A stretch of DNA of 64,000 nucleotides from Felis catus. Its lineage: Eukaryota. Shown here piece after piece: positions 5,166 to 50,108 of the stretch. Location of the stretch: assembly GCF_018350175.1 (NCBI RefSeq), contig NC_058368.1, forward strand, positions 42,162,001-42,226,000, in the 5' to 3' direction. The notes below the pieces were generated by a model. That model worked only from the letters and a program-made list of their open reading frames with translations. It was not told the origin of the DNA and made no database searches. A program made the position numbers and the translations under genes. Within the stretch, counting starts at the first letter, position 1. Every line of letters starts with the position of its first letter.

Positions 5166-5377
5166 AAAAAAAAATTAACGTTTATTTATTTTTGAGACAG
5201 AGAGAGACAGAGCATGAACGGGGGAGGGTCAGAGAGAGAGAGACACAGAATCTGAAACAGGCTCCAGGCTCCGAGCTGTCAGCACAGAGCCCGACGCGGG
5301 GCTCGAACTCACGGACCGTGAGATCTTGACCTGAGCCGAAGTCGGCTGCCCAACCGACTGAGCCACCTAGGCACCCC
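5166..5377 (-). mobile_element. Can-SINE, felid type
   Basis: Full head with A/B-box region, CpGs largely retained; flanks actttagttattt / actttaattattt. Confidence 0.95.
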
Positions 5378-8290: not shown

Positions 8291-11200
8291 TATTTCCTTT
8301 TTGACTGCCCCATCTCATATATAGTTTTAAACAATATTCCTCCATTTGGCCAGAAACCCGTCACCCTGTTTTTAATCTGTGAAACTTTATACAGGATTCA
8401 AGAAGAAATCTCATGTCATACAGGAATCTAACCACCTAAGCTGTTTTTAAAATTGTATTTTATCTACACCAGTCAATGTAAGTTCTCTGTGGGAGTTACA
8501 TTTCAATAAATAATCAATCAAACACAATGTAGGAAAGTTAATGCTCAAATGTGAGACAATTTCTAAACAGGCAATTTACTATCACTATGCAAATTTTCTA
8601 GCTCTGAGCCTGTAGCAAGGCAGACCCTATTGTGTAAGGTTAGCTATCATCTTTCACCACGCAGTGGATTTATTGCCAGAGTAGGTGGAGTGACTTCACT
8701 TTCTCTTGTAGCTCTGTTAATCTGCAATACTGCGAGAGCAAGGCTTTGCACATTAACACATCAGGGAATTAATACATTTTAAATAAATACAGCAAAATCA
8801 AGGTTGGTGAGTCAGAGCACACAGAGAATTTAATGTTTGACAATTATTTTATGTTTTGAATTTGTGAAGTAGTCAGTATAGTATAACTTGGGCAGTGTTT
8901 TATAAAAATAATTAAGTGTATGTTTAAAAGAGAGCTCTTTACAAGGCTATGCTGGAAAACGCTTCAGTGAAATAAATTTAGGCTCTTGGCACTGTTCAAA
9001 TGACTAACTCTGCAGGACTGTAAAGATTTTGAGATTTACATGTAATGCATACGATAACATTTTGTTGTAACAGCTTTCTAAACATATATAAACCACACTA
9101 TCTTTAATCTTGTTCTATCATGTGAACTTTCCTACAATATAAGTATTATAGTGTATCAATTACCACCCAAATATATCGAATTATGTCCCCAAAAATCTTT
9201 GTTGACCCAAAGTCAATACATACTTATTCTAAGACTCTTAAAGACCTGGGTTATGAATTTTACAATGGAAATCAATAATTTCCTATTTAGAATGCTTACT
9301 TTGCTACACCAGAGCACTTTGCAAATTTCACTTCACAAAACTCCAATGGTCTATAAAAGGCATATTCATGTGGTTTTATGTAATACAGCCATTGAAAATA
9401 TTTTTCTTCTTGGTCAGTTTATCACCTTCAGGATTTATTCCAGGGTCATGAAGAATTCCAAAGTAGTAGGAAACTGACTATATTAATATATACAGCTGGG
9501 GATAAACTATTACAAGGATGTGCCAGTTAAAATTATGTGAACATGAGCTTTTATTAAATATTAACACATGCATACATATTAATTCTATACAGTTAGGAGA
9601 AAATAGAGTATATACATGTGGCTTATTATAAAACCAAAGCCTGTGATAATTTGTTGCATTACTATATGTTACCTTTGAAAATGTCTGATCGCTAAATTGA
9701 CTCTATGTGCATATATATATAAATATATATATATACCCACACACACATACATATATGTCATGTATATATGCCTATGAGTGCATACATAGGTCACACATGT
9801 GTCGTATACATGTCATAGATATGTTGCATATATTATGTATAAGATATTTGCTACATACAACATTCATAATATGTATAGACTTAATTTTGTGATTAGAATT
9901 TTTTTCAATAATATATTTGTGGATTTTGCACTTAAGGGTAGAATGACAAAGCAAATCAAACACTAAACAAGAATATTCAGAGTAGTTACATAGGGTATAT
10001 TGGTATCTAAAATATTAAATAGAATCACTGAAATAATTTAAAAATAATTTCAACAGTGAATCAAAGAATGAGTAATATTTTCCCCTTGGTTGGTTGGATT
10101 CCATTATTATGGAGGGATCCTTTGTAAAACAAAACAAATACAAAAAGATTAAAATTGCCATTTGCTACCAAATTAACAATCTCACAATATTGCATATGTA
10201 ATATATAAAAAATAGACAACACAGTAGCTTAAAATGCATCGTCATATGACAGTCAGAAAACCTGAAATCTGGCTCTACATTTAATCTGTGAACATCTATC
10301 ATATACCAGTTCTCATCTTCAGAGAACTTGGACTCTACTGATTTACTGTTAATTAACCATGATTGTATTCACGCTTCAAGCCTACAGTGATATATATTTA
10401 CCTATAATCTTTCATCAAATATTAGATTTACTGCAAGAGTGGGTGTAGTGAATTAAGATAAGAATAATATAGCTAGAAAATAATTTAATGCTACCCTAGA
10501 TGAATCATTGATTTCGAAGGTGAGGAAAAGGAGGACCCAAGATGTAATTAATTTTAAATATCACTACTACATTGAATCTAGTGATACCATACACTCATGT
10601 TATCACTGCACTGAAATATATCTAAACAACCCTCATGTTGTCTTTCAACATTTGTAATGTTCTTATTTATTTATTAGTAGTGCCAAAACACTTAATTGGA
10701 GTATTATGAAATGAGTTATTGTTCTGTCAAATTTATCTCTCTTTGTAGAAAAATATATGATCATCTCGTTTAAAATCCAAGGGAAGAAAAAGAGGGTATA
10801 AGGACTTGGCTATTAGAACCTAATTTCTTTCAGAAAGAATTGTGTTGAAAACACAACATCTGTTGTACTTGATTATTGAAGCTTTATTTTCATTGGCTTC
10901 CCCAAAAAATGCTGCTACATTCAAGCAAGTAGATTAAATGTTATTAGCTTTAATACCTTTTAAAACAAGTAATCTGTTGAAGTGATAATGGAATTTAAAG
11001 TAAGTACATTCATTAAATTGGTTTTTACACTATTGTGGTTTCCCTGTTGGCCACATGAATCTCTAAACCTGACACTGCTAATTACAATTATAATAAACGG
11101 TATATGTATACATGATTAACTTCACCCTACACTTAAAGCAGACATAGAGGTAATTGAAGAACTCTACTGTCATATATAATTCTAAAAAAGAAAAACTGTG

Positions 11201-11336
11201 TTTGCTATTTTATTTGTCTTACAAATAAGAAATAGAGGTTATTCACATAAATGCACGAACCCATTATAATCAGAAATTTAGACTGCAACAATTACTTGCT
11301 AACTTACTATTGGATGAAAGGTAATGAGACTCATTG

Positions 11337-11390
11337 GGAAGGGAGGGAAGGAGGAGGGAAGGAAGGAAGGAAAGAAGGAAGGAAGGAAGG
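11337..11390. repeat. (GGAA)n-like microsatellite
   Basis: ggaagggagggaaggaggagggaaggaaggaagg... Confidence 0.9.
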
Positions 11391-12028
11391 TTACTGGAGA
11401 ACATCCAAGAGCAATCTTCCCATACTAATACACCCCAATTTAGATTTGCAGTTACTTAGGCTTGAAGAATTGGCTCCACTGTTATACATGGCTAGAGGCA
11501 TAGTTTCAATACTTCTTTTTGTGTCAAGACACCTGTCTTTTTACTTCAGTGCCAGAAGGGTTTAGCATCTTGTCACTGAAGCAACACAGCCTGCACATTT
11601 ATAGGTGTCACTCACTCTACCATCTGTTCCTTAGGATAACAGCCACCATTATCACCCAGCCTCCACCTGAGGCTTTAACAATCTCTGTGGATTAAAGTTC
11701 AGATCTACAAGGAAGAATGGTTAGCAGTAATGTTGCCATTCAACTTTGCTTGACCTTAACTCTATTGCTGTCAATACTGTATTGCAGCCTGCTAACTTGC
11801 GTTTTCATCCTGTATGTATATTGTACTGTGAAGTTCTTGATTAAGCAATGAAAGCATATAAAAGCCTTTGCACTGTTATTAGCATTTTTGGTCTTTTTTT
11901 CTGCTTTTACTTTATCAAAACACTCAAGGCTAGATCTATAGTATTTTAATAAATATATTTAAAGTGAATGAACCCTAATGAAATTTCAGTTCTAGGGTCA
12001 CTAATCAGATAGTTTCATAAATGGAATT

Positions 12029-12030
<2 letters not shown>

Positions 12031-12069
<39 letters not shown>
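12031..12069. repeat. (AC)19 microsatellite
   Basis: Direct reading. Confidence 0.97.
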
Positions 12070-12072
<3 letters not shown>

Positions 12073-13464
12073 TGAAATAAGAAAAAAGGATGGTATTGTG
12101 TTGAAAGCTAACCAACACATGATAACCAAGTTCTGAAGGACTTATTTAATATGACATCAATTATTTTTCCTTTGTAGTCTAAAATAAATAACATTGTGTA
12201 TAAATATAAATTATAACATGATTAACAAATACTTACAGCCTACACTTTCATAAAAGGTAGCACCTGACAATTTATATATATCTTTAACCAAACAATTCTA
12301 GTCAATATATAACTGGAGGAAAATATTGCAATGTGATATTTTCCCATTCTTAATTTACTCTCCTTCTTTACTGGTGAAATGAAATGTTTCCACATTAGAA
12401 GTGTTTTTTTTTATGCCCCCTGTATTTTAATGGCTGTCATTATTTTTATAAAAGGTACTCTTCCACATTCAAATGATAGGGAAAAGGAAGTGGGCTCTGT
12501 TTATTCATTACCGATCAAGCTAATAAAAATGTTTTGCAAAGATGGTAAAACATGATAATGCTGTCAATTTAAAGCAGTTCATTACGAGGAGGAACGTTTG
12601 TGCTCATTTTGTTCTACAACTGAACTTTTACTGTGGCTATAAAACAGCATCCCTTTGTTACTACAAACAGTGAAGTCTGCTATATCCTCTTGCTCTCCCC
12701 ACCAATTTGTTTATGTGTGTGCTCACTGCTTTTAGAAGGATTCAGCTCCTCTCTCCTCTGGGAAGCAGTAACTGTTGCCCAGTAATGTTCTAGGATGGCT
12801 GTCTGCAAACTCACTCCCCCATTTTATACAGGCAATATTAGCAGGTTAATCAGTGACTTACTCTATGAAACAAATAGTTTAGGGTTTCACTGCACTATAT
12901 TCCTATGACAATCAGTGTGATCTTTGGGAGCATTTTTGGAGACCAGTTATCACTAGCCATTGGCTTATGGGGAACTGGTGGCTTTCATCTTAAGTTGTGT
13001 CATGACTACACCTGATCCATTTAAATATGTGTGAAGGAAGCTCATTTCTTTAGCCAGTTCACACTTACAATAGAATGATGGTATTTCTGTAATGTGCACA
13101 GAAGCTGAAGAACAATAATGTTGCAGCCCCTTGTATGCAAAACATGTGAGCCTACCAAGGAACAACGTGATAATGTCAATGTAACGTTCTCATTATTGCA
13201 GTGGTATCGCTTGTAACTAAGTTCTTCAATTAGTAACAATCACTTAAGAGGAACCCAAGTCTACTACAGATAGTGGCAACTTCCTCAAACAATTCTGCTT
13301 CTCTAGTTTGAAAAAGAAATTAAGTACAACTGTTTTTAAGTTCTGGATGATATTGATATAAGGCAAATATAACTCAGTGATCCCAATAGGAAGTATATAT
13401 ACATAATAAACTGAACAAATGAAAAAAATAGCATTATTCAGAATATAGTTTTGTTCTAGAGAAT

Positions 13465-13860
13465 TAATTCACTCAACAAATATTTATTGAGCTTCTTCCA
13501 CACATTGTTTATAAAAAATGATGAATAAAATAGCTCCTGCCTTCAAGAAAGACAATGTCTATGGAGATAGACATGTAGATAATCATACTATATTTGCATT
13601 ATTGATATAGTAAGTGCCAATCAAAGTGCATTAATGTTCACGAAGATAATAGCAGAGTAGGAGAAGTAGGAGAATGTTAGACAAAGTCATAAAGAAAAGG
13701 AAAAGTTTCATTTTTGACTTTAAAATATGGGTAGTGGGGAAGAAATTTCTGTGCAAAGAAAATAAAAGGTGCAAAGACATAAAGCAAAGAAATAATATGG
13801 CTCAGTAAAGTAAATTTCAAGAAATTTGATACGACTAATTCATACATTGAGACAGAACAA
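13465..13860 (-). mobile_element. L2 fragment
   Basis: 'ttcactcaacaaatatttattgagc...ctcctgccttcaaga' is the antisense L2 3' end. Confidence 0.5.
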
Positions 13861-15844
13861 CCGAGGGATGTAAACAAAGAAACAATCGAAGGTGTTGTTC
13901 TATGCTATGTAAAGTAATTAAGACTCTATTAAGGCACGGGTTACAGGGATCTGTCGATTGGGAGTTTACTCTCAAAATAAGCACTGCTTTAATTTTTCTA
14001 GTGCTTTAGGGCATTGTCTTGTATTGGTTTAAAGACATCCAACCTACCCATATTTGGATTTCTTGGGGAAAGTGAGGTAAGGAATCATTAAAAATTCAAG
14101 ATGACAATGATATGTTTTATTTAAAATTATTTAACCCGTAATCCAAATGTGCGTAGGTTTCTAAGTAGAATTTACCACTTTGCCATACTGACATGGCTCT
14201 CTGAATTGTAAGAGTTAATCTCTGGCTGCTTAAAGTTTATTGAAGAATAAAGTTACTGCAGAATATAAAATATTAATCTAGTATATGGAATATTCCATAT
14301 AAATCCTAACTTTCAAAAATAATTGTGCACAAATGGTAAATGAAGACATCACCAAGTCAGTACATATGTTACAGTGCATAAAACACATATGATTATTTCT
14401 TACAAAGTAACTTAACATTGAACCTTCTCCATATGACATGTCTTTCTTTTGTATATAATTCCCCCACATAAATGATTGTATTTAAAGAGTATACACATTA
14501 AAATAAATATAAAATGTTTTTTTTTTTAATAAGGGGTATCATCATATACATACAAGAACAGGAGATTATAACTCTCAGTAGTCATTAATCCTTTTCCAGT
14601 TTATCTGGAATCTTTCTCTTTAGACTAATCTATCAATCATGTGTCTGGTTACAATGTGGTGTTCTCAGCCCATACAGACAGAGAGCATTCAATGTTTTAT
14701 TTTCTTTCATTTTGTGTATGCAATAAAAGGAAAGAGGAAAAGAGAAAGGAGGAAAGAAAGAATAAGGAGAAAGAGGAAAATTAGGAGAAAGAAGGAAGTC
14801 ATTCTTGGGAATCAGTCTTTTTTTTTCTTATTTTTCCACATGCTAATATTAAATTAGATATTCACTAAATTCTTTATTAACACAAATACCATTCTGCAAA
14901 ATGTATGACTGTCTCCTCAAAATGTGTTCTAAATATGACTTATCATAATATCCTATTGACTTTTGAATACTAAATATCCTAAAGGATTTCGTTTAGTAAT
15001 TAAAACTATCACCTTTTCCTGGTCAGTGAATCTCTAGAACCAAGTGCTCCTTTAGGAGAGTCTCTACATATCTTCTCTGCCCTTTATCTTCCTTTCTCCT
15101 TTGGAGTTATAAGCATTTCTATTAGCAGGCATAAGTGTCCACTGACATTGAATGTAGACAAAAGAGAAATGTCACAGAGAAAAGACTCCAGTTACCCCAT
15201 CAAAATTAGAAAGGAAAACGTTGGTTCCCTCTGCATTTGATAAAGGTAGACATATTTGAAATGATCTTTTGGCAATAGAGGCAGTCTTTCTGAAGGGGAG
15301 TTTTGCCTAATGGAAACCTGTTGGTCAGATGCTCAACAGGACACTCAGACTTCAGGGCTGCTTCATTCATTTATTCATTCATTCAATCAACTTCCTAAGA
15401 GGAAACACAATCTTAGACCCATAATATTTTCTTCCCAAAGAAGGTGCTTTCAATCAGAAATCACTGGTGCGGTGTAAAGATGCAAAAGAGGCTCCAAATT
15501 ATTTGAATTATTTTGCTATTTGATCTTTATTCCACTCCTTTTTTTTGAAGAGAATATTTTACCATGATATATCTTATACATTTCACAACCAAATTTTACC
15601 ACATACTTTAGACTCCTTCTTATCTTTAACCGCTGGATTTACATCCACATTTTGCCCTTTTCTAAGCTGGATAGCATAGGAGTTGGTTTATATAATCAAA
15701 TGGTCAAAAGTAGGCACCATGACTAAATAAACACAGGTAGTCAGCTTACTGTGAAGAGCCTCCCATCACACACATCATGCCAAGGCTATGTGGTTTGCAA
15801 AGTGGAGACACTGCACTATAAAAATCACTTTAGAAATCTTCCTG

Positions 15845-16705
15845 CATTTCAAAGCAAAACTACAATGAGATATCACCTCATATCTGTTAGAATAGCTATT
15901 ATCAAAAAGATATGTGGTAACAAATGCTGGTGAGGATGTGGAGGAAAGGGAACACTTATACACTGTTGGTAGGAATGTAAATTGGTGTGGTCACTATGGA
16001 AAACAGTATGGAAATCCCTCAAAAATTGAAAAATAGAACTACTCTATTATCTAGCAATCTCCTCGGGATATACCCAAAGAAGTTCATATAGCAGAGTACT
16101 AACCACTATACGATCACGGCAACCTAAAGAAGTTCAAATCAGGATCTCAAAGAGCTACCTGCACCACCATATTCATTGTAACATTATTTATGATAACCAA
16201 CACATGGAAACAACCTGTCAATGAAGGAGTGAATAAAGAAAATGTGATTATTTATACAGGGAGATAGAATAATATAATTTAGATATATAAATTATATATA
16301 TTTATATAGAAGTAATATATCTGGATTATAGAATATGTAATATATATTATATATAAATATATAGTATATAAATAAAATAATATATGATTATAATGTAATA
16401 TATTATATTTATAGATAAAACTCAGCCTTAAAAAGAAAAGGAAATCTTGTCCAGTTGCAACAAGATGAATGAACCTGGAGGACATTATGTTAAGTGACAT
16501 AAGTCAGACACAGAAAGCCAAATACTTTATGATCTTACTTATATGTGGAATCTAAAACATTCAAAATCATAGAAACAGAGTAGATTGGTGGTTGCCAGGG
16601 GCTAGAAGGTGGGGAAAATATATATATGAATGTATATCATTACAGTATACACTTTAAATATATTATAACTCTATTTTTCTGTTATACCTCAATAACACTG
16701 GCAGG
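15845..16705 (+). mobile_element. LINE-1 (L1MA/MB-like) ORF2 end plus 3' UTR, with a TA-rich low-complexity insert at about 16270-16415
   Basis: 'aactacaatgagatatcacctcatatctgttagaatagctattatcaaaaag...gaggatgtggaggaaagggaacact' and 'gatgaatgaacctggaggacattatgttaagtga'. Confidence 0.9.
16091..16120 (-). pseudogene. Tailless retroposed 5' fragment (nt 1-30) of tRNA-His(GUG)
   Basis: Reverse complement GCCGTGATCGTATAGTGGTTAGTACTCTGC equals the first 30 nt of vertebrate cytosolic tRNA-His-GTG as recalled; flanked by acccaaagaagttca (16072-16086) and acctaaagaagttca (16122-16136). Confidence 0.9.
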
Positions 16706-17029: not shown

Positions 17030-17195
17030 GGGGCACCTGGGTGGCTCAGTCAATTAAGCATCCGACTTTGGCTCAGATCATGATCTCACTGTTGTAGGTT
17101 CAAGACCCATGTCAGGCTCTGTGCTGATAGCTCAGAACCTGGAGACTGCTTCAGATTCTGTGTCTCCCTCTCTCTCTGCCCCTCCTCCGCTCATG

Positions 17196-17226
<31 letters not shown>

Positions 17227-17256
17227 AAAAATAAACATTAAAAAATAAAATAAATA
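17030..17256 (+). mobile_element. Can-SINE
   Basis: ggggcacctgggtggctcagt head, (CT)n, A tail; degenerate TSD taaaaccctacctt / taaaaccatatctt. Confidence 0.95.
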
Positions 17257-47788: not shown

Positions 47789-50108
47789 CATGAAGGCCAT
47801 ATACAAAACAAAAAACAAAAAAAACAAAAAAAACAAAAAAACAAAAAACAATAAAAAAACCCAACAGGTAATATTGTCCTCAATGGTGAATAACTGAGAG
47901 CTTTCTCCCTAAGGTCAGGAACACAGACAGGAATGTCCACTTTCACCACTGTTATTCAACATAGTATTGGAAGTACTAGCCTCAGCAATCAGACAACAAA
48001 AAGAAATAAAGGGCATACAAATAGGCAAATTTTTTTGTACTAAAAATCTATAAAATACCTAGGAATAAATCTAACCAAAGAGGTAAAAGATCTATACACT
48101 GAAAACTATAGAAAGCTTATGAAGTAAATTGAAGAAGACACAAAGAAATGGAAAAACACTCCATGCTCATGGATTGAAAGAATAAATATTGTTAAAATGT
48201 CGATAGTACCTAAAGCAATCTTACATATTCAATGCAATCCCTATCAAAATAACATGAGCATTCCTCACTGAGCTAGAACAAACAATCCTAAAATTTTTAT
48301 GGAACCAGAAAAGACCCCAGATAGCCAAAGTCAGGTTGAAAAAGAAAAACAAAGATGGAGGCATCACAATTATGGACTTTAAGCTGTATTACAAAGCTGT
48401 AATCATCAAAACATATAGTATGATACTGGCACAAAAACAGATATATAGATCAATGAAACAGAATAGAGAACCCCGAAATGGACCCACAGAGATAAGGCCA
48501 CCTAATCTTTGACAAAGCAAGAAAGAATATCCAATGGAAAAAGACAGTCTCTTCAGCAAATAGTATTGGGAAAACTGGACAATGACATGCAGAAAAATGA
48601 ACCTGGACCACTTTCTTACACCATATACAAAAATAAACACAAAATGGATAAAAGACCTAAACATAAGCAAGACAGGAAGCCAACGAAGTCCTAGAGGAGA
48701 AAACAGGCAACAACTTCTTTGACCTTGGCTGCAACAGATTTTTACTTGACATGTCTCTGGATGCAAGGGAAACAAAAGCAAAAATGAAGTATGGGGGAGG
48801 GCACCTGAGTGACTCAGTCAGTTAAGTGTCTGACTTCAGCTCAGGTCATGGTCTCATGTCAGGCTCTGTGCTGACAGTTCAGAGCCTGGAGTCTGCTACT
48901 GATTCTGTGTATCCCTCTCTCTCTGCCCCTCCCCCACTCATGCTCTTATCTCTCTCTGTCTCTCAAAAATGAATAAATGTAAAAAAAAATTTAAATGAAC
49001 TATTGAGACCTCATCAAGATAAAAAGTTTCTGCACAGTGAAGGAAACAATCAGTAAAACTAAAAGGCAACCAACAGAATGGGAGAAGATATTTGCAAACA
49101 ACATATCAGATAAGGATTAGTATCCAAAATCTATAAAGAACCTATCAAACTCAACACCCCAAAAAACAAATAATCCAGGGAAGAAATGGGTAAAAGACAT
49201 GAATACACACTTTTCCAAAGAAGACATCCAGATGGTTAACAGAAACATGAAAAGATGCTCAACATCACTTATCATCAGGGAAATACAAATCAAAACCACA
49301 ATGAGATATCACCTTACACCTGTCAGTATGGCTAAAATTAACTCAGGCAACAATAGATGTTGACGAGGATGTGGAGAAAGAGGAACTCTTCTGCTCTGCT
49401 TGTGGGAATGCAAACTTGTGCAGCCACTCTGTAAAACAGTATGTAGTTTCTGCAAAAAATTAAAAATAGAGCTACCATATGATCCAGCAATTGCACTACT
49501 AGGTATTTATCCAAAGGATACAGGAGTGTTGATTCGAAACATGCACTCCAATGTTTATAGCAGCACTATCAACAATAGCCAAAGTATGGAAAGAGCCCAA
49601 ATGTTCATCAACTGATGAATGGATAAAGAAGATGTGGTGTGTATATATATATATATATATATAATGGAATATTACTCAGCAATCAAAAAGAATGAAATCT
49701 TGCCATTTGCAACAATGTGGATGGAACTAGAGTGTATTATGCTAAGCTAAATAAGTCACTTAGAGAAAGATAAATATCATATGATTTCACTCATCTGTGG
49801 AATTTAAGAAACAAAGCTGATGAACATAGGGGAAGGGAAAGAAAACTAAGATAAAAACAGAGAGGGAGGGTGGTTTTTAAAGATAAAAACTGTTAAATAC
49901 AGAGAACAAACTGAGGGTTGCTGGCAGGGTGTTGGGGGAGAGGATGGACTAAATGGGTGATAGGCATTAATTAAGGAGGGCACTTGGGATGAGCACTGGG
50001 TGTTATATGTAAGTGATGAATCATTAAATTCTATTCCTGAAATCCTTATTCCACTATATGTTAACTAACCTGTATTTTAATAACACAATAAATTTAAAAA
50101 GAAAAAAA
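47789..50108 (+). mobile_element. 5'-truncated carnivore LINE-1 (ORF2 RT-to-C-terminus pseudogene, 3' UTR, A tail)
   Basis: Encodes ...[33 protein letters not shown], then [20 protein letters not shown]; carnivore-type 3' UTR 'gatgagcactgggtgttatatgtaagtgatgaatca'; stops and frameshifts present. Confidence 0.95.
48797..48992 (+). mobile_element. Can-SINE nested in L1 ORF2, with its B-box region deleted
   Basis: TSD-like aaatgaagtatgg / aaatgaactattg. Confidence 0.92.

Follow-up and report, generated by a model that had tools for sequence, protein, structure and literature searches.

The short antisense insert described here very probably arose as a tailless retropseudogene of cytoplasmic tRNA-His(GTG), a neutral fossil that came to lie within an older, decayed L1 element of the cat genome. 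It is located in the window, i.e. the 64-kb stretch of DNA that was analysed (G000:C1:42162001-42226000), and the genome-wide searches covered the 2.43-Gb, 71-contig assembly to which the window belongs. The duplication of the target site, the exact 5' end of the tRNA part, the lack of a tail and the nested position are directly observed, and the target-site duplication together with the target motif points to L1 as the source of the enzymes. The insert is real but ordinary, as it represents one more of the published tailless tRNA retropseudogenes, with an endpoint class that is already on record in human. The individual features, in window coordinates, are as follows.

15850-16071, plus strand: host, decayed L1 ORF2 C-terminal region to the left of the insertion, recognized by its ORF2p match; the left limit at about 15850 is the point from which a within-window BLAST matches another copy.
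16072-16086, minus strand: target-site duplication, 3' copy in tRNA sense, minus strand TGAACTTCTTTGGGT; its first bases TG equal tRNA U35-G36.
16087-16090, minus strand: four junction bases TATA, placed where tRNA nt 31-34 would be by register and where the gene has GTTG.
16091-16120, minus strand: tRNA-His(GTG) nt 1-30, comprising the 5' strand of the acceptor arm, the D arm and four of the five bases of the anticodon stem 5' strand.
16121, minus strand: single extra base between the repeat and G1 (position -1; T in tRNA sense), where all 11 genes have C.
16122-16136, minus strand: target-site duplication, 5' copy in tRNA sense, minus strand TGAACTTCTTTAGGT; present as a single copy in paralogous L1s.
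16137-16695, plus strand: continuation of the host L1 on the right side; the alignment of paralogous L1 copies extends over the junction, and the approximate right end, near 16695, was set by eye.

On the plus strand, the order is acccaaagaagttca (16072-16086), tata (16087-16090), the 30-mer (16091-16120), a single a (16121) and acctaaagaagttca (16122-16136), after which the host sequence picks up with aatcagg. Read in the sense of the tRNA, the same segment consists of the flank GATT, the repeat TGAACTTCTTTAGGT, a T, tRNA nt 1-30, TATA and the repeat TGAACTTCTTTGGGT. This is exactly the layout that had been claimed in the original prediction, in which the 30-mer was also taken to be nt 1-30 of tRNA-His-GTG. 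When the minus-strand 30-mer was compared with the genes of the same assembly, it was identical at 30/30 positions to each of the 11 full-length tRNA-His(GTG) genes. The copy begins exactly at tRNA nucleotide G1, i.e. the 5' end is complete, and there is no A-run or oligo(A) tail 3' of the tRNA part, where TATA and then the repeat come next; the claim that a poly(A) is lacking thus holds as well. Allowing up to 2 mismatches, the 30-mer occurs at 17 places in the 2.43-Gb genome, and allowing up to 3 mismatches at 22 places, while the reversed control pattern gave no match at either setting.

The potential sources of the copy are highly uniform. ARAGORN finds tRNA-His(GTG) at 11 distinct places in the genome, and a BLAST search with one 72-nt gene returned 11 genes that are 100% identical over positions 1-72. 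In cloverleaf numbering, the 5' strand of the anticodon stem has five bases, the fourth of which is C30, and past C30 the genes continue with G31 and then with the loop T32 T33 G34 T35 G36 G37 C38. At position -1, C is found in all 11 genes and T in the window copy. As the copy thus differs from all genes at -1 and has no gene match past nt 30, a transfer as a DNA-level gene duplicate is excluded on these sequence grounds. For the same reason, i.e. the C at -1 in all 11 genes, the T is not derived from a gene leader but may have been added without a template or reflect a U-1 5' variant, as is reported for human tRNA-His (PMC7745994).

The tRNA-His genes of the cat are clustered, with five on C17 in 0.3 Mb (104.27-104.57 Mb), where tRNA-Asn, tRNA-Gly and tRNA-Lys genes are nearby, and three on C15 inside 2.3 kb (58.460-58.462 Mb). 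The flanks of L009, L010 and L014 are identical, which suggests that a segment was duplicated recently or that contig C57 is an unplaced duplicate. One full-length but diverged tRNA-His-like sequence (L029, G000:C17:104572416-104572485, minus strand) shows 81% identity over 1-70 and is situated about 500 nt away from the intact tRNA-His gene of L012/L020; it is probably a decayed tandem gene copy. It was considered as a source of the window copy and rejected, because its nt 1-30 are not identical to those of the copy and its positions 31-34 are CTTG.

The fragment itself is not a functional tRNA gene. ARAGORN made no tRNA call at the insert site, and Rfam gave no tRNA match there when positions 15900-16300 were searched at E-values up to 10, so that neither program recognizes a complete cloverleaf, as is expected for a fragment of 30 nt. 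Two Rfam matches in this region, to SpF56 and mir-6130, are far under the gathering score and are chance matches. Nucleotides 1-30 are identical to those of the functional tRNA-His(GTG) genes of the same genome, but the fragment is devoid of the anticodon arm and loop, the T arm, the B box and the terminator, and it carries T instead of C at -1. No function is expected. Elsewhere in the window, ARAGORN's sole call is a tRNA-Arg(tcg) at 5287-5372, which forms the head of a tRNA-derived SINE at 5180-5375 (minus strand) that also contains a CT-rich region and has an A-rich tail. At about 17030-17250 (plus strand) there is a similar element, and both resemble SINEs of the carnivore type. Rfam reported nothing at gathering score in the whole 64-kb window.

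The host sequence had been predicted to be an old L1, and this assignment is supported. The translation of 15865-16086 contains 3 stops in 74 codons, and with X at the stops it matches residues 1110-1173 of the 1275 residues of human L1 ORF2p with an E-value of 3.8e-21 (PDB sequence match). Pfam recognized no family in the three frames of 11001-16086 or in the three frames of 16122-16600, and as no reverse-transcriptase domain is thus found upstream, the identity of the host L1 rests on the PDB sequence match. The host is thus a short, 5'-truncated L1 piece. For the 227-nt piece to the left of the insert, a first look yielded 6792 candidates in the genome, of which 40 were scored; 39 of these, all besides the window's own, are L1 copies with 79-86% identity to the host. 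In an alignment of 29 loci across the site, none of the 29 paralogous L1 copies has letters in the 50 inserted columns, and copies colinear with the window cross a single 15-mer region straight into the sequence that follows 16136. Two further observations concern the L1 content of the window: an AT-rich simple repeat with inverted self-similarity (about 16260-16400) splits the host L1 some 130 nt downstream of the tRNA insert, and a second L1 ORF2 C-terminal fragment, which shares about 72% identity with the host L1, is found at 49286-49746.

The direct repeat that flanks the tRNA part (16072-16086 and 16122-16136) is identical at 14/15 positions. When the 64-kb window was scanned with a degenerate 15-mer pattern that tolerates up to 1 mismatch, these two sites were the only ones found, compared to 0.04 expected from 100 shuffles. 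Together with the single copy of the region in the paralogous L1s, this agrees well with the predicted target-site duplication of about 15 bp. With regard to age, the tRNA part shows 0/30 changes and has both CpGs intact, and the repeat copies differ at 1/15 positions, as opposed to the 79-86% identity among the L1 paralogues. Judged by these numbers, the insertion is far younger than the host L1, which had been anticipated from the intact CpGs.

Further evidence comes from related insertions in the same genome; a search for other duplication-flanked His 5' fragments had been proposed in the original prediction. The first 24 letters, with up to 3 mismatches, occur at 25 places genome-wide (control 0), i.e. 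at the 11 genes and at 14 truncated copies, the latter being the window copy (L001) and 13 sister insertions with the same layout (L002, L003, L015, L016, L017, L035-L039 and L070-L072). A BLAST search of the genome with the whole 72-nt tRNA returned, besides the genes, only 5' pieces that end at query positions 30-37, and neither a 3' piece nor a full-length retrocopy was found in this search. In all 13 sisters, the tRNA letters extend through nt 34-36, and positions 35-36 are TG without any mismatch in 14/14 copies. Using a simple ungapped repeat search, target-site duplications of at least 10 nt with at most 1 mismatch were detected in 10 of the 13 sisters (L002, L003, L015, L016, L017, L035, L037, L038, L070 and L072); two more (L036, L071) have a perfect 7-nt repeat, and one (L039) has no convincing repeat. 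In 10/13 sisters, the repeat itself includes the TG of positions 35-36. At positions 31-34, the sisters read GTTG (7 copies), GATG (2), ATTG (2), GCTG (1) and GTCG (1). The mismatches within nt 1-30 range from 0 (L001, L002 and L003) up to 7, which places the window copy among the youngest of the 14 copies. Additional bases ahead of G1 are not restricted to the window copy with its T, as A is found in L017 and GCTA in L003, and as 3/13 sisters (L002, L016 and L037) have an extra G between the 5' repeat and G1, which fits the copying of mature tRNA-His with its post-transcriptionally added G-1. The view that L1 machinery generated a tailless retrocopy of the 5' part of tRNA-His is thus supported by the tRNA identity, by the L1 host, by the absence of the insert from the 29 paralogues and by the 13 sisters.

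How could such a copy have been made? According to the target-primed reverse transcription model, as described in Noll 2015 (PMC5322556), the 3' end at a nick pairs with few bases of an RNA, which is then copied to its 5' end, and a staggered second nick results in the duplication. Applied to the window copy, an L1 endonuclease-type nick would have been set on the plus strand after ...AGTTCA (the bottom-strand site TTCA/AATC), as suggested by the boundary of the duplication and by the sisters. The first-strand nick TTCA/AATC that is implied on the plus strand almost coincides with the nick sites of L002, L070 and L072. The site TTCA/AA matches the canonical L1 site only in part, and the nick context TT/TGAACTT fits the consensus TT/WAAAAWW that has been published for targets of tailless retropseudogenes (PMC5322556). 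The freed 3' end ...CA may then have paired with U35-G36 of the tRNA-His anticodon, which is suggested by the TG at the start of the repeat here and by its presence in the repeats of 10/13 sisters. From there, L1 reverse transcriptase would have copied the RNA to the 5' end of the tRNA, where the start of the copy at G1 is observed, and a staggered second nick 15 nt away would have given rise to the observed duplication. Before the insertion, the site would have consisted of a single ACCYAAAGAAGTTCA directly joined to AATCAGG.

The original prediction had left it open whether a 5' tRNA half or an internally primed tRNA served as template. For the family of His retrocopies, internal priming in the anticodon loop is now favoured and an angiogenin-type 5' half disfavoured, because the TG that corresponds to U35-G36 lies inside the repeat in 10/13 sisters, and because human 5'-tRNA-His(GUG) halves are reported to end at U33 or G34 (PMC7745994). 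The stereotyped endpoints and the TG thus together support a priming in the anticodon loop over the reverse transcription of pre-cut tRNA halves. In case of the window copy, the situation is more complicated. Its start had been correctly placed at +1, i.e. exactly at G1, but the predicted stop at nt 30 in the stem is doubtful, as all 13 sisters reach nt 34-36 and the window copy follows the same register: 30 nt, 4 nt, and then a repeat that starts with TG. Letter by letter, the match stops at C30, i.e. in the anticodon stem, whereas the register of the 13 sisters would put the end in the loop, at nt 34-36. The four letters in question, TATA, agree with the GTTG of the gene at position 33 only and differ at 3/4 positions, and an anticodon-loop priming of this particular copy is for this reason deduced from the register and the sisters. 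The TG at the repeat start corresponds to U35-G36 as in the sisters, but for a single copy, two bases carry little weight by themselves.

Two readings of the endpoint are about equally likely, namely a priming at U35-G36 with aberrant first four bases, or an end at C30 that was followed by four filler bases. If the priming was at U35-G36, it is unlikely that the four letters were altered later, because ordinary decay does not account for 3/4 changes beside 0/30. An aberrant start of synthesis at positions 31-34, with pseudouridine at 32 and queuosine at 34 in human tRNA-His (PMC7745994), would be one possibility to explain the TATA. An end at C30 is disfavoured by the fact that the TG start in the right register would then be a coincidence, and that 0/13 sisters end near 30.

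The most serious rival explanation, which we regard as plausible but do not prefer, assumes that a pre-cleaved 5' fragment of tRNA-His (an angiogenin-type half or a 5' tRF of about 30 nt) that ended at or near C30 was reverse transcribed, and that TATA is a non-templated or template-switch filler. Such a template would directly account for the stop of the exact match at C30 and for the 3/4 deviating letters thereafter. His 5' halves are moreover abundant, with 5' ends at G-1, U-1 or G1 (PMC7745994), and the T ahead of G1 could be such a U-1. However, the published halves end at U33 or G34 and not at C30, no sister copy has an end near 30, and the TG exactly four letters past C30, in the register of the sisters, would be a coincidence with a chance of at most about 1/16, considering TG alone. 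Furthermore, the search for truncated-RNA intermediates of 5S and U2 that is reported in Noll 2015 found none (PMC5322556). A half of the angiogenin type should have its 3' end at U33 or G34 independently of U35-G36, whereas here the match ends at C30 and the repeat starts with TG.

A second rival, which appears quite improbable, concerns the extent of the duplication. The repeat search stretches the pair to 18 nt with 16/18 identical positions (ACCCAAAGAAGTTCATAT / ACCTAAAGAAGTTCAAAT), and if this were the true duplication, the insert would consist of T, nt 1-30 and T, with a priming after ...TTCAAAT, so that three of the four junction letters would come from the target. The three extra letters match at only 2/3 positions, which is obtained by chance with a probability of about 0.16, and the implied nick AAAT/CA would be a poor L1 endonuclease site, while the 15-nt reading gives TTCA/AAT, as in the sisters L002, L070 and L072. 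Finally, the match could be fortuitous, or an L1/small-RNA chimera could have arisen by template switching in place of a nested insertion. These explanations have nothing in their favour except the location inside an L1 and are practically negligible, as the reversed control pattern gave 0 matches in 2.43 Gb, as the tRNA piece is antisense to the L1 although such a chimera would share orientation and target-site duplication with a 5'-truncated L1, and as the L1 continues on both sides with the repeat flanking the tRNA piece alone.

One may also ask what information the junction letters contain. Position 32 is variable in 4/14 copies, with A in L002, L017 and the window copy and C in L035. An origin of the A32 from the upstream flank was considered, as the three copies with A32 have A at -3, and was rejected, because A at -3 is common among the targets, several copies with A at -3 keep T32, and the flank is outside the first-strand priming in the established model. 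It is in principle conceivable, albeit speculative and rather unlikely, that the state of the germline tRNA template is preserved in the junction letters of His tailless retrocopies: the extra G in L002, L016 and L037 would then represent G-1, the T of the window copy U-1, and A32 (L002, L017 and the window copy) as well as A34 would be misreadings of pseudouridine-32 and queuosine-34 by L1 reverse transcriptase. The idea that modified positions are mismatch hot spots has weak support, as the unmodified position 24 also varies in 4/14 copies and CpG positions vary, too. If the speculation were true, one could use such fossils to trace how tRNA ends were processed and which modifications tRNAs carried in ancestral germlines.

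Taken alone, the window copy matters little, as it would be a neutral by-product of L1 activity, of a class that is catalogued in thousands of human cases. If related species carry it too, it could serve as a clean presence/absence marker in phylogeny. The window copy and the 13 sisters together show that tRNA-His retrocopies are stereotyped in the cat genome, ranging from nt 1 to 34-36, with a repeat that mostly includes the TG of anticodon positions 35-36. Repeat annotation may hide such pieces of 30-50 nt inside their host L1s.

The class to which the insert belongs is well known. It has been described under the name “tailless retropseudogenes” in Schmitz 2004, as related in Noll 2015, where hundreds of tRNA-derived copies and 2,402 curated human tailless retropseudogenes are reported (PMC5322556). 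According to the same source, these copies are truncated at single-stranded regions, the final 2-18 nt of the annealed RNA show complementarity to the target, and they are most abundant in the clade that includes dog. The insert has the small-RNA origin with a complete 5' end, the flanking target-site duplication and the lack of oligo(A) by which such copies are recognized, and it shares with the published cases also the 3' truncation and perhaps a target that is complementary to the last copied bases. It differs from them in that the tRNA letters match exactly only as far as C30, inside the anticodon stem, and in that the repeat is preceded by four letters without a match. The closest known relatives are the human His-GTG tailless copies, nine of which are given in Table S2 of that study, seven spanning 35 positions, one spanning 37 and one spanning 56 (PMC5322556). 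They derive from the same source tRNA, and the 7/9 that span 35 positions match the nt 34/36 endpoint of the sisters and the register of the window copy. They reside in another genome and are independent insertions, and the comparison with the human set is one of coordinates and source names only. The 5'-tRNA-His(GUG) halves, in turn, represent the same part of the tRNA, and their heterogeneous 5' ends, which in human are G-1, U-1 or without an additional base (PMC7745994), could explain the extra T. In contrast to the retrocopies, the halves are RNAs that end at U33 or G34, whereas the retrocopies include or pair with U35-G36, so that their template reached further.
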